DNA from: Eledone cirrhosa
Lineage: Eukaryota
Direction: 5' to 3'
Length of the DNA: 64,000 bases
NCBI GenBank assembly: GCA_964016885.1
Contig: OZ024743.1
Span: 215,326,001-215,390,000, forward strand
In this document: piece by piece, positions 29,586-63,243 of the stretch
Numbering within the stretch: position 1 is the stretch's first letter
How the letters are laid out: each line of letters opens with the position of its first letter
Program-made: the position numbers and the translations under genes
The notes under the pieces: model-generated
Seen by the model: the letters and a program-made list of their open reading frames with translations, nothing else
Database searches by the model: none
Told to the model about the DNA's origin: nothing

Positions 29586-30537
29586 AATTATACAATTATC
29601 AAAGTTGTGGTCAAATCATTTAATAGATGACAATCGTTTCTTCCAAACTCTCGTTTGGAGTGATCGGAGCATTATCAATGTTTGCACATATAATTAAAAT
29701 CCTATTCAACTGAACAATAATATATATATACATATAAATTGATGTTGTGAGCAAATGTTTCGTATTTACGGGGTGGATTGGACGTGACATATATTTTACC
29801 TGAATTGTACAAAAATTGCACAAACATTCAAGTTCAAATTCAAATTCAAATTTAAATTAAATTCAAATCAAAAGCACGGAATGGAATACATGCAACAGTT
29901 AAAACAAGGGAATAGTCCAAATATTAAAGAGGCATTGAGGAAGTACTTTTGAGAAAGCAAGAGTGCAATAACAATTCATATGCAGGCCTATGGATAGTGC
30001 GACTGCGTAAGTCATATACATGAGAAGGAGAGAAGCAAAGCTATTATGCATATATAGATGAATAAATACTGCACTTAAAGCAATTATGTTAATGTATTAG
30101 AGTCTATGGTGGATGTTGAATGGTGATGGTGTTCGAATTAGTGTGTGTTGAGATACATAAAGTTTTTGCAGACTTTTCCATGACATATGACGAATTAAAT
30201 GTTAGTTGATGTTTATATTGAATGTTATAAGTTAGTTAGAGCAATGGATTGTAAATTAGTGTTAATGACTTCATATTCATAGACTATATTTGATCAACCG
30301 TTAAATTTTCAATCGTTAATTTCCGTAAAATATATGTCACATACATTCCACCCTGTAAATACGAAACTGTTACTCACAACATCAATATATATGTAACTAT
30401 ATTATTGTTCAGTTGAATAGGAGGTTAATTATATGTGCAAACATTGATAATGCTCCGATGATTGAAAACGAGAGTTTGGAAGAAACGATTGTCAGCTATT
30501 AAATGATCTGAACACAACTTTGATAATTGTATAATTT
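29586..30537. mobile_element. Non-coding element with ~215-bp inverted arms, each with a TTGATAA...GAAAC..GTC hammerhead-like motif
   Basis: 29586-29800 is the reverse complement of 30325-30537 (diverged); TA-rich flanks. Confidence 0.8.
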
Positions 30538-30559
30538 TTATATATATATATATATATAT

Positions 30560-31968
30560 ACAGTAGTCCACTACGATGATAAAAAGGTAAGGAGCCAATG
30601 TATCTCGTTGGAGCACTCCAGCCAGCATCTCAAAGAACTCTGTCATCCCATCAGGTGTAATGACTTGGGCTTTGGTGTTGGTGTAGAGCAGTGATATCAG
30701 GTCCACTATTATGTTGGGGATTCCATAAACCTGTAAGATCTTCATCAGGCAGTGACGGTCCACAGAATCAAAGGCCTTCCTAAAGTCAATGAAAACCATG
30801 ACAACAGGAAGGCACTTCTAGCTACCTCTAATATCCTCCTCAGCGTCAGGATGTGACAGGTGGTTGATCTTCCTTCTCTGAAGCCGTTCTGGTTGTCCCT
30901 GAGGCGCTTATCCATCTCAGGCTGGATCCTGTTAAGAATCATCCTGTTGAGGGTCTTTGCCACAAGTGATGTCAGTGAGATCCCCCTGTAGTTGTTGGTG
31001 TTAGAGAGATCTCCCTTCTTTGGCACTGGGACGGTGTCACTGATCATGCACTGATTCGGGCTAACTCCTTTCTCCAGTGCCTGGTTACAGAATCCCAGCA
31101 TGATATCATCAAAATCACACCTCTTCATCACTTCTTCGCCACTCCACCTTCTCAATGAGCCTTGCACTGGAGAAACACCATGATTCTCGCTTTACTGTAG
31201 CACCGACTCAGAGCAAGAGAGTTAAGGCGAAAAGGATATCGGATGCTGAATCATTTGGTGACAAATACAGTGAAGGAGGCAGAGGATTTGATGCAGGAGG
31301 TTGAGACTGTGTCGATGAGTGTGGGGCTGAGAATGAATGAGACTAAAACAAAATATCTGGTAGAGAATGTTGAAATGCCAGATGGGTTCGCTAATGTAGG
31401 CGGGAAGTCGCGAGAATTCGTTGAGGACTTCCTATATTTTGGTGCAAAGATTGGGAATACGGAAGATGTGGTTGAGAGGAAAAGTAAAGCCTGGGCGGCG
31501 TGCCACAGCTTGAGATTGGTGTGGAAGTCGGACATTTGTAAAGACCTGAAAATCCGTCTCTTCATTGCTGTAGTCTGAGATTTCGACACTGACCAAGAAA
31601 CTCACACAGATGGTGGATGGGTGCTACACGAGAATGCTGAGGATGGCTCTGAACATTAATCAGTATACACTGAGGATGAAAAACACAGAGCTGTATCGGA
31701 GCCTCCCAAATGTCAGCTCAAATGTGATACAGAGGAGAGTCAGTTTAGCTGGACATGCTCACCGACATCCAGAGTTGACATTGCACTCAGTGCACCCGTG
31801 GGAGCCCCTATATGGACACACTGGAAGAAGAAGACCAAGGTTAACGTATGTTGATGCCCTAAGGACAGACACTGGTCTGTTGGAGACACAAGACATGGCA
31901 GCGATAATGAGGGACAGTGACCGCTGAAGAGAACTCGTCCGTGGATCTCGGGAATGTTACCCGCCCTA
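30560..31968. mobile_element. RTE-clade LINE with 5' inversion (minus 30560-31167, plus 31168-31968)
   Basis: minus: NYRGISLTS, QNGFREGRST, FIDFRKAFD, GVLQ.DTLAPYLF; plus: VGLRMNETKTKY, DFLYFG, YTRMLRMALN, GRRRPRLTYVD; (TA)n at both ends. Confidence 0.92.
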
Positions 31969-32739
31969 TAATATATATATATATATATATATATATATAT
32001 ATATATATATATATATATATATATATATATATATATATGTATATATATAATGAAAAATCAGTGATGCATCTGAACTCAATTTATTGTGTGTTACAATTGT
32101 TTCGCCGGCAGACAGCTCGAAACACGATCATCGTATGGATCTGTCTGATTTTGGAACTGCAGGTTCGTTGGACACTACTAATAATATCGGAACAAATTTT
32201 CTCACTGGAGTGTTAGCGTAAAAAAAACCTCATCTTCGCTCGTCCTGCTATTGGCTGTTGTTTTGCTACGTCATCATAAAATTTGACCAACATGTACTGT
32301 CAAAACTGACCATCAGCTGTCCTTCTTCCTACCACACTTCAATGAATCCCTGGTGGGTTTGGTAGTTCACACTTCTACGCGGGCATTCACACACACACAC
32401 ACACACACATATATATATATATACATTCACACACACGCACACAATCATATAAATAACATCCGCACGCATATACTCCCGCTCTGCATACGCACCAAAGAGA
32501 AACCATAAAACTATAGACATATGCGTCCACAGATGCCGCCCTACATGCCCACGTACATCAACTCACACATTCACACACGCACACAGATGCATACGCGTAT
32601 ATCTACTCGTATACACAAACAGGTAGAGACGTATACAATGACACGCACACGCACATACACACATGTGTCCATATATACAGGCACAAAAACAGACTCGCTC
32701 GCAAACACACACACGTATATATATATATATATATATATA

Positions 32740-60199: not shown

Positions 60200-60385
60200 A
60201 GAAATGTATAGTGACAATTATAAAAACTAAAGTACCTGGATAGATGCAATAGTCATGACAACGGGAAAGGCGATGAAATATAGTTCAGGTAGGCCGAAAA
60301 CAGTAAGAACTATTAGATTTTACCAAGAAGTAATCAAAATAATTAAGGTCGGTAGAAAAATACCCCAAAATGAAGTCATCTATAT
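60200..60385 (+). pseudogene. Possible Tc1/mariner transposase N-terminal relic
   Basis: SSGRPKTVRT motif at ~60285-60315; otherwise heavily decayed. Confidence 0.3.
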
Positions 60386-60907
60386 GTGGGATTAACATAT
60401 TTAGAATTAGGTAGATACTTGTGTGTATAGTAAATTATATTTTCCTCTTTCTGGGTGATATAACGGTTTGATTGTTTTACACACACACAAAGACATATAT
60501 ATATTTATATATATATTTATATATATATATATATATTTATATATATATATATATATATATGAATATATTTATATATATAGAGAGAGAGATATAAATGTAT
60601 ATGTGTATATATATATATATATATATATATATATATATATATATACATACATTATATTATATGTGTCGATACTAATATGCATATATATATTCAAATATAT
60701 ATGTATATATATATATAATATACATATATATATATATACTGTATATATATATACTGTATATATATATACATATATATATATATATATATATATATATAAT
60801 AAAATATAAGATCAAAAGCAGTAAGAACGAAATAGACGGTCACAGCGGGGGAAAATATATGTGTAAATATGATAATAAACGTGATGCGTAGTTGCAAATG
60901 GGTTACA

Positions 60908-63243
60908 TATGAATAAAGTTGGTCCTTCATCAGTGATCTTCCAACCATTCTCGGTATTTCTTCGTTTTAAAGACCATATACCTCTTGTTGGTGCGAGCAA
61001 CGGCTAAAGAAAGTCGTTGGGACACGTTAATAAAGGGAACAACGAGAGTGTAAACAAACAAAAATGGTGAAGCAACGAAAAGTGATGAAGAACGAGTCAA
61101 CGAGTCAAGTCCCAAATTTTCATGAATATAAGTTCGGTGAAATCGTGAACGAGAGAGGATAAATACCTTCAAACCTGGTTGAAATGTGAGCAAGGAAGGA
61201 ATTCCGCACATGTCTAGCGGCAGGAAGAAGGAGTATATATATATATATATGAAAAATATGGGGAGAAGAATACTGCATGGTTGCACATGGATTACATATT
61301 ATAAAATTAGTCCCTCATCAGTGATTTGCCAACGGTCATTGGTATTTCATCGCATTACAAGTCATATTTATACATATATATATAAATATATACATACATA
61401 TATACATATACATATAAATATATATACATGTATACACATATATATATATATATATATATATATATATATATATATATATATATATATATATATATATATA
61501 TATATATATATATATATATATATATATATATATATATACATACATATATATAAAAATGAGGTAAATATCTCACTGAGTACTAAGTACACATTGGGATATA
61601 TAGGGTGTCTATAATATAATTGTTGTTCTATGGTACTAATTAGAGATACCAGAACTATAAAAATTGATGAGCAGAACAAACAAAGATGAAACAATCCTTT
61701 CAATAAATTAAAAAAACAATTTAAATATCTACCTGTTCATAATGCTAGTACCGGCGGTTTCCATCCACAAAAGATTGGAAATTCAGAGAATTTCCAACGG
61801 AAAGTAGATTTCATCAGATAGCTATTTCCTTTCTATAGGACATACGTCCCATGGTCCGCAAATATAATGCTAACTACCAGCTCGTATGAGTTATAGTCGT
61901 TACAGTGACCCATACGTGACCTGGCCACAAGAACAAACGGGAATATTACAGACTTGTTGATGGCTTGGCTGCTAAAAAAATAGCAGTAAGCAACAACGAA
62001 TTTTTTTCTCTACATGGATTGGAGAATATATAAAGATGAGGTAAATATCTCACTGAGTACTAAGTACACATTGAGATATATAGGGTACCTATAATATAAT
62101 TGTTGTTCTTTGATACTAATTAGAGATACCATAACTATAAAAATTTATGAGCAGAGCAAACAAACATTAAACAATACTTTAAATAAATTAAAAAATAATT
62201 TAAATATCTAGCTGTTCATAATATACATATATACATATATATATTTATATATATATATATATATATATATATATATATATATATATATATATATATATAT
62301 ATATATATATATATATATATATACATGTATACACATACACACACATATACATATACATATATATACATATATACACATACATGCACATATATATAAATAT
62401 ACATATATATATATATATTAATATATACACATATATATACATACATATATATATATATACATACATATATATATATACATATATATATTCATATATACAT
62501 ATATATATACATATATATATATATATACATATATATACATATATATATAAATATATATATGTATATACATATATATATATTTATATATATATATATATAT
62601 ATATATATATATATATATATATATATATATATATATATATATATATATGTATATGTATATGTATATATATATATATATATATATATATATATATACTGAA
62701 TGAAACAGTATTAGTCCCGTAGAAGCTCCTTCTAGAAAATAAAAAAATGTTACTCTGCCATGTATTGAGTACCTTACTTACTGTGGTTATCCCCGACTCA
62801 ACCCGGGACCTACGTATATATATATATATATATATATATATATATATATATATATATATATATGTTCCTTTTTCTCACATGACTACAATTTCACAGAACC
62901 TATGTTCACCGAATTCAAGGACTAGACTCCTTCTTCCTCCCGTTTGACCTGTGCGGAATTCCTTCCTTGCTCACATTTCGACTATGTTTGATGGTATTTA
63001 TTCTCTTTCGTTCACGATTTCACCGAACTTATATTCATGGAAATGTGGGACTTGACTCTTTCTTCCTCACCTTTCGTTGCTTTACCAACTTTGTTTCTTT
63101 ACTGTCTCGTTCGTTACCCTTATTTACGTGACCCAGAGATTTTCTTTAGCCGTTGCTCGCACCAACCGAAGGTATATGGTCTTTAAAGAGATGGAATACC
63201 AATGAATGTTGGAAGATCACTGATAAAGACTGACTTTATTCAT
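60908..63243. repeat. ~300-bp diverged inverted arms (60908-61210, 62950-63243) enclosing a ~185-bp direct repeat (61555-61740, 62035-62220) and (TA)n
   Basis: gagcaaggaaggaattccgcaca / tgtgcggaattccttccttgctc; atgaggtaaatatctcactgagtac twice. Confidence 0.88.

Follow-up and report, generated by a model that had tools for sequence, protein, structure and literature searches.

We present here the structure of a set of inverted pairs built from Penelope-like elements (PLEs) in a 64-kb stretch of the Eledone cirrhosa genome (GenBank assembly GCA_964016885.1, contig OZ024743.1, positions 215,326,001 to 215,390,000, forward strand), called the window below, and of their counterparts in the 3.0-Gb assembly. 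The pairs are of a known kind, the PLE insertion anatomy, which is real and occurs genome-wide at high density. Two 5′-truncated copies lie head to head within (TA)n, one closing at an outer end S and the other at an outer end L, where L is S plus a tail of 40 to 140 bp and the inner junction is variable. One protein-RNA complex probably primes both copies. The near-strict pairing of S with L across lineages makes the PLE mechanism directly testable.

Inverted pairs were found by comparing the window with itself. Nine had been predicted from the sequence, and all are present at roughly the positions given, with arm identities of 79 to 98%; three further pairs lie at 12175-12619, 49588-49955, and 56335-56646. 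The predicted bounds left out a one-sided tail, and what had been described as spacers are the 5′ continuation of the longer arm, without a pairing partner. The features are as follows.

29454-30540: family C pair (3′ region of a Hydra-type PLE); left arm on the minus strand from the L end at 29454 to ~30325, right arm on the plus strand, ~30318-30540, with the S end.
32740-33170: family B pair (Neptune/Nematis-type linker); S left, L right, junction at ~32931, minimal canonical hammerhead core at 32973 (plus strand).
33236-35868: family H pair 1 (Hydra clade); L arm 33236-34319 on the minus strand, S arm 34322-35868 on the plus strand with an endonuclease remnant at 34381-34863, variant hammerhead at 33393 (minus strand); the arms are non-nested.
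36250-36462: family E pair (PLE with a C-terminal endonuclease); L left, S right, junction at 36398, arms without hammerhead.
42621-43109: family D pair; L left (42621-42831), S right (42851-43109), hammerhead-like fold with the variant core CCGTTGA.
43121-45779: family H pair 2; S left (43121-43365, an inverted piece of the pseudo-long terminal repeat [pLTR]), then a plus-strand, 5′-truncated body ending at L (45779), in which the S position is 45692 and the tail 45693-45779.
43366-44689, plus strand: 5′-truncated Hydra-clade open reading frame (ORF) with reverse transcriptase (RT) motif YRDD, CxCX5C linker, and GIY-YIG-type endonuclease.
45623-45672, plus strand: predicted type I hammerhead fold with a U4A core (CAGAAGA) in the family H pLTR.
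45886-46073: family F mini-palindrome; L left, S right, junction at 46021, no hammerhead found.
47907-48350: family A pair (Hydra-type); L left, S right, junction at ~48175, canonical hammerheads at 48096 (minus strand) and 48251 (plus strand).
49586-50215: family I head-to-head pair (Hydra-type) with a central (TA)n tract; left arm truncated at 49586.
60800-61233, minus strand: family G arm of L type, running into the tail; inner end on (TA)n.
62864-63244, plus strand: family G arm with an S end; inner end on (TA)n, partnership with 60800-61233 uncertain.

Every intact window pair (8/8) consists of one S arm and one L arm. The nine predicted pairs had been assigned to unrelated families. Two of them, 33240-35868 and 43122-45780, are one family (95% identity over 1549 bp), leaving eight, and these are all PLE-type; six of the eight are tied to a PLE ORF, one weakly so and one not, and at least four PLE lineages are represented, with the Hydra clade as the main one. 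The family G arms (60908-63243) are 84% alike, and copies elsewhere in the genome resemble each of them more closely (about 91% and 88%). Other elements lie between their inner ends, and the region may hold two insertions or one old interrupted insertion. At 60800-60820, the left end of the minus-strand G arm opens with ~19 bp that match family A's S end and share its orientation, which may reflect a template switch or a nested stub.

The arms run on, on the same strand, into PLE ORFs in families A, B, C, D, E, H, and I (tblastn and ORFs). Family H has a 709-aa ORF with no Pfam match of its own, and its homolog P0102 has GIY-YIG. It carries DKT (6/7 covering copies), RWR, and CxCX5C and lacks GxKF, a motif set common to 115 homologs; the homolog alignment (n = 116) has DKT in 106, RWK in 82, CxCX5C in 107, and GxKF in 0. 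By the motif list of PMC8557442, family H is, on these sequence motifs, a member of the Hydra clade, and the A, C, and I proteins are 33 to 45% identical to it. No solved-structure match was found for the Hydra profile. The 776-aa ORF of family B matches Pfam RVT_1 and GIY-YIG and has GxKF, DKG, a CX4CxxC linker, and CCHH in the endonuclease, which would place it in the Neptune clade by motifs that cannot tell Neptune from Nematis. Families D and E are further lineages, 23 to 27% identical to B. A Naiad assignment for family E was rejected, as the endonuclease follows the RT and is not N-terminal (loci L288, L289, and L304). Family G consists of noncoding 630- to 640-bp tandem units, and a candidate ORF for it in locus L299 was rejected. 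The pLTR lies upstream of the ORF in loci L306, L308, L315, and L316, and 5′ truncation is seen as variable inner ends. The window contains another PLE ORF, degraded and with 49% identity to family B, at 24197-25682 (minus strand).

The genome was searched with one arm from each of seven window pairs, which gave 184 to 2941 candidates at first look, and the 30, 30, 30, 20, 20, 20, and 20 best loci were examined. These loci were picked by similarity to the window arms, so that arm length is biased and the type of the partner end is not. A random sample consisted of 100 evenly spaced 10-kb pieces (1 Mb) on 22 contigs. TA-abutting outer ends form two sharp peaks, 39 to 141 bp apart, in 8/8 families. 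Joined head-to-head pairs are of one family in 130/131 cases, the other being a doubtful cross-family pair; these 130 comprise 117 S+L, 2 S+S, and 3 L+L pairs and 8 with an intermediate end. Within the random sample, 24/25 pairs are S+L, and family F follows the rule in 43/47. Because independent choice of ends gives at most 50% S+L, the excess is incompatible with it (p = 4e-29 for all joined pairs and 8e-7 for the random sample). The sides of an insertion thus differ in 117/122 clean pairs, contrary to the symmetric system originally envisaged.

Neighboring elements that share only a TA tract served as a control: 31 such neighbors are of different families and 5 of the same family, with S+L in 22/36. 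This comparison bears on the view that the pairs arise when two one-armed insertions independently and successively enter one TA tract, or when existing palindromes are recopied whole. One-armed ends do occur, elements do pile up in shared TA tracts, 60800-63244 may be an example, and 15/43 family F pairs share two junction types. The joined arms, unlike neighbors, have no TA between them, belong to the same family, and show S+L pairing in 96% of the clean cases. In family F, the frequent junctions are found in several subfamilies, each time with two arms of that subfamily, and non-F junctions are nearly all distinct. We consider this view improbable. The 72 TA-flanked ends of the random sample include 40 with an adjacent partner, 11 with the inner end on (TA)n, and 21 unclassed, and in many copies outside inverted repeats (IRs) the second arm is a mere piece of tail; two arms are common but not obligatory.

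Priming had been proposed to occur on RNA 3′ ends. L is read through in four full-length H copies (into the 5′ untranslated region and ATG), in one D copy, and in the G tandems, and because full-length copies continue past both ends into the 5′ untranslated region and ATG, S and L are internal start sites. Two further samples that carry this species label were examined as raw reads: ~1,900 per run leave family H at position 45692 (S) and pass into (AT)n, and many different joints between an S arm and an L arm occur in reads and contigs from other runs. Assembly or library fold-back artefacts are therefore hardly credible as a source of the pairs: the region is rich in TA repeats and one F unit is exactly duplicated locally (locus L263), but the arms of pairs differ by 0 to 10%, the S ends and joints recur in those other runs, and an artefact would not respect S and L. 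The duplication in question (L263:253-684) is an exact 224-bp tandem duplication that takes in an entire family F palindrome and the TA tract belonging to it, and it reflects recent unequal exchange or an assembly error. The tails showed no consistent stable fold across the eight families (z from −2.1 to +0.6). At 45691-45727, ~800 reads per run have the H tail preceded by a single, constant foreign sequence, and ~1,170 diverge after 45727. The motif upstream resembles a Helitron-type terminus, and the reads suggest that another repeat family captured part of the H tail.

The random sample contains 238 IRs, 91 of them with a short spacer (up to 300 bp). A TA flank, defined as (TA)4+ within 140 bp, is present on both sides in 65/88 short-spacer IRs away from piece ends, compared with 3.5% at random positions. 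TA is flush on exactly one side in 54/88, on both in 6/88, and on neither in 28/88. In a family-agnostic classification, 50/85 IRs are flush with TA on one side and offset from it by 34 to 165 bp on the other; 6 are flush on both sides, 18 lack TA on a side, and 11 are of other types, the 85 falling into 44 clusters, with family F the commonest (13/85). Short-spacer IRs make up 33 kb of the 1 Mb sampled, and most look PLE-derived. Two head-to-head pairs of tRNA-like short interspersed elements (SINEs) with outward 3′ ends and no (TA)n flanks (L270:342-747 and L219:9141-9545) represent a minority, non-PLE class of IR.

Hammerheads were scored by a structural descriptor, since a stricter motif scan overlooks variant and bulged forms; on 77 related metagenome loci, the descriptor matched the sense strand in 54/77 and the antisense strand in 3. 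Among the 91 short-spacer IRs, type I hammerheads point outward in 24, inward in 0, and are absent from 67 (p = 1e-7; shuffles, 0). TA enrichment and an outward bias had been named as genome-wide checks, and both hold in the random sample; fixed terminal inverted repeats (TIRs) or a lack of bias, which would have spoken otherwise, were not what we found. Most window pairs had been said to carry outward hammerheads; the canonical core is present in only 2/9 pairs (32740 and 47995), and 4/9 have a variant core, CAGAAGA at 33240 and 43122, CCGTTGA at 42661, and CCGATGA in the family of 29586, whose window copy is damaged. The descriptor found no hammerhead within the arms of 36307, 45959, and 60908, and an Rfam scan of the window returned none, only low-score microRNA matches on simple repeats. 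By family, the core is canonical in A and B and variant in C, D, and H; E has a weak stem I, and none was found in F and G. The noncanonical cores are fixed, with intact stems (CAGAAGA in 36/38 H, CCGTTGA in 31/31 D, and CCGATGA in 37/42 C copies).

Short TA-flanked palindromes resemble miniature inverted-repeat transposable elements (MITEs) or other TIR DNA-transposon derivatives inserting at TA, and family F is small and abundant, without a hammerhead or a firm ORF link. For families A to E, H, and I, such an identity is refuted. Any TA target-site duplication would be masked by the surrounding (TA)n. The asymmetric ends (117/122), the variable lengths and junctions, the continuation of arms into RT-endonuclease ORFs, the outward hammerheads, and the adherence of family F to the S+L rule make it very unlikely as an account of the set. 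PLE palindromes would be misannotated as MITEs or microRNA hairpins, and they could be a source of double-stranded RNA and cruciform DNA.

The relation between the arms bears on how they arose. Non-nested arms occur in 32/117 S+L pairs, the S arm reaching further 5′ in 15 and the L arm being tail only in 17; the arms share a common inner end in 68/117, and L contains S in 17/117. Subfamily alleles are concordant between arms in 412 cases and discordant in 27, with ~176 discordant expected at random, and therefore both arms usually come from one source. In family B, two polymorphic sites differ between the arms, in either direction (5/14 and 6/15 pairs), which suggests two templates in some events. 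Family F was excluded from the microhomology count, as its junctions recur; the 66 distinct non-F junctions include 22 blunt, 30 with 1- to 4-nt overlap, 13 with 1 to 3 extra bases, and 1 artefact, an apparent 23-nt overlap produced by a reference that began within the left arm. Microhomology, predicted for the junctions, is marginal (at least 3 nt in 7/52 junctions against a null of 6.3%; p = 0.044). Inner ends cluster upstream of the hammerhead, each family having a single position, a pyrimidine-A step similar to the initiator consensus; these positions, which include window 45618 for H, ~32931 for B, and 46021 for F, may mark transcription starts. The pile-ups indicate that templates mostly span the ribozyme site uncleaved.

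These data also address single priming with fold-back, in which the cDNA starts at L, snaps back or self-primes, and is trimmed at S by the endonuclease before ligation. Fold-back yields S+L and identical arms automatically, fits the 68 pairs with a common inner end and the 17 in which L contains S, and has precedents in the self-priming proposed for rotifer PLEs (PMC3846280) and the endonuclease resolution of tails proposed in PMC8557442, as far as the accessible text of both goes. In 32/117 pairs, including 33236-35868 and 42621-43109, the S arm holds sequence that the L arm lacks; because non-nested pairs cannot be fold-back copies, fold-back is excluded as the sole route. It also requires complementarity at the junction, which was found to be weak, and would not give family B arms with different subfamily alleles; in vitro, RT starts at each of the two boundaries of the tail (PMC11167929). 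We judge it unlikely as the general explanation, though less so than any other alternative considered here.

Our preferred reading is coupled priming from two sites. One protein-RNA complex would cut both strands of the target, and each strand would prime one cDNA, one from the S site and the other from the L site, the two primings being coupled in one asymmetric complex, probably a dimer. (TA)n would be present before insertion, a point argued only from the way unrelated elements pile up in shared tracts. The cDNA ends would be joined by end joining, with 0 to 4 nt of microhomology or a few untemplated bases, and zero-spacer palindromes would result when the two cDNAs extend as far as the 5′ end of the RNA, close to a pLTR promoter. 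Two-sided priming followed by joining, as put forward in the original prediction, finds support in the fixed outer ends, the variable junctions, the 32/117 non-nested pairs, the outward bias, and the TA enrichment, and it agrees with two-strand cutting and extension in vitro (PMC11167929). That model was broadly right, and erred on RNA 3′ ends and on symmetry. A wider and more tentative proposal, to which we give slightly less than an even chance, is that twin priming is programmed across distant PLE clades, with an asymmetric RT-endonuclease dimer using S and L, one per strand; a single reaction would then yield mini-palindromes, inverted pLTRs, and one-sided tails alike, and at 50 per Mb it would, by extrapolation, account for ~150,000 insertions in this genome capable of forming hairpins.

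Several observations weigh against coupled priming. The S and L windows were defined on the same data as the pairing count. An ORF link was found for family F at one locus (L144) of 20 examined and for family G at none of 20. One-armed ends (11/72) and unclassed ends (21/72) occur, and the 85/117 pairs that are nested or share an inner end can be obtained by fold-back too. Gene conversion between arms could add to the allele concordance, and the two-way discordance in family B means that a single RNA molecule cannot explain every event. The junctions combine weak microhomology with 1 to 3 extra bases in 13/66. No empty target site was recovered among paralogues: 6 candidates arose from 125 insertions, and those inspected are neighboring insertions or local duplication. 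Contigs of four runs, compared with one young insertion, gave no joint across it. In vitro, the start site of a PLE was no different between strands (PMC11167929).

The window also contains other repeats. At 12175-12702, a 445-bp palindrome of 97.5% identity, with a single occurrence in the genome search and no TA flanks, is followed directly by a SINE-like 3′ piece, past which ~21 bp from the palindrome center is repeated. It looks like target-DNA fold-back during non-LTR insertion, a mechanism distinct from that of the PLE pairs. A non-LTR element, presumably R4/Dong-like, has two copies of 90% identity, at 53240-56228 and 4149-6535, which carry RT and zinc-binding domains and end in (AAT)n. 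An older palindrome (78%) at 56335-56646 adjoins the (AAT)n tail of this element.

The accessible text of PMC8557442 treats the origin of PLE tandem and inverted structures as an open question and describes an inverted 5′ copy, a tail that is frequently one-sided, and insertion into (TA)n. Head-to-head PLE palindromes appear in the accessible text of PMC3846280 (Arkhipova 2013), and a curation guide gives the same anatomy in the part available (PMC8969392). The inverted 5′ pLTR invoked in the original prediction is thus published anatomy, here in the form of head-to-head fragments. As these sources describe them, published insertions (PMC3846280, PMC8557442) likewise have an inverted 5′-truncated copy, palindromic junctions, and a one-sided tail, with (TA)n for the Hydra and Naiad clades; tails reach 140 bp here, not 30 to 40 bp, and most events are tiny ORF-less palindromes. 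Here, S+L pairing is counted (117/122 clean pairs), and the non-nested arms argue against the self-priming model of 2013 (PMC3846280, in its accessible text). The Hydra clade, as set out in the available part of PMC8557442 (Craig 2021), resembles family H in DKT, RWK/RWR, CxCX5C, absence of GxKF, a short ORF (709 aa), the (TA)n target, and the pLTR hammerhead. The U4A core of family H (36/38) is not among 66 hammerheads of the 77 related metagenome loci.

Poseidon PAc cuts and extends both strands of AT-rich DNA in vitro with uncleaved RNA template, is a predicted dimer, and starts RT at two internal sites bounding the tail (Frangieh 2024, PMC11167929). Its sites lie inside the ORF, and S and L of family H lie just before the ORF start. 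That study does not report a site per strand of one target or an inverted product, where the genomic data here imply one each, and it leaves later steps unvalidated. A count of S+L pairing or an explicit coupled model was not found in the literature searched; subscription papers (e.g., Arkhipova 2006) were outside the search, and figures S1 and S2 of PMC11167929 may bear on it. Metazoan PLE hammerheads are type I minimal forms with a palindromic loop 3, as here, and Schistosoma has opposite-strand hammerhead pairs 100 to 700 bp apart, according to the accessible text of PMC4209133 (Cervera and de la Pena 2014); the orientation bias measured here (24 outward, 0 inward) goes beyond the pairs in that text. 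Family G, with its noncoding tandem units of 630 to 640 bp and PLE-like ends, resembles the non-LTR retrozymes in the available part of bioRxiv 10.64898/2026.07.22.740005. It was rejected as one of them, since the structural descriptor found no complete type I hammerhead in it.

L1 offers a parallel outside PLEs, and the two differ in their priming sites. In L1 twin priming, the second target strand primes a second cDNA and an inversion results by end joining; the second site is variable and the arms do not overlap. The PLE pairs use two fixed sites, their 3′ ends both point outward, and their arms usually overlap. Twin priming is named for L1 in the part of 10.1101/2021.12.20.472354 available. 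Against this background, S+L pairing and non-nested arms together constrain the mechanism tightly on genomic grounds and favor coupled two-site priming over self-priming.

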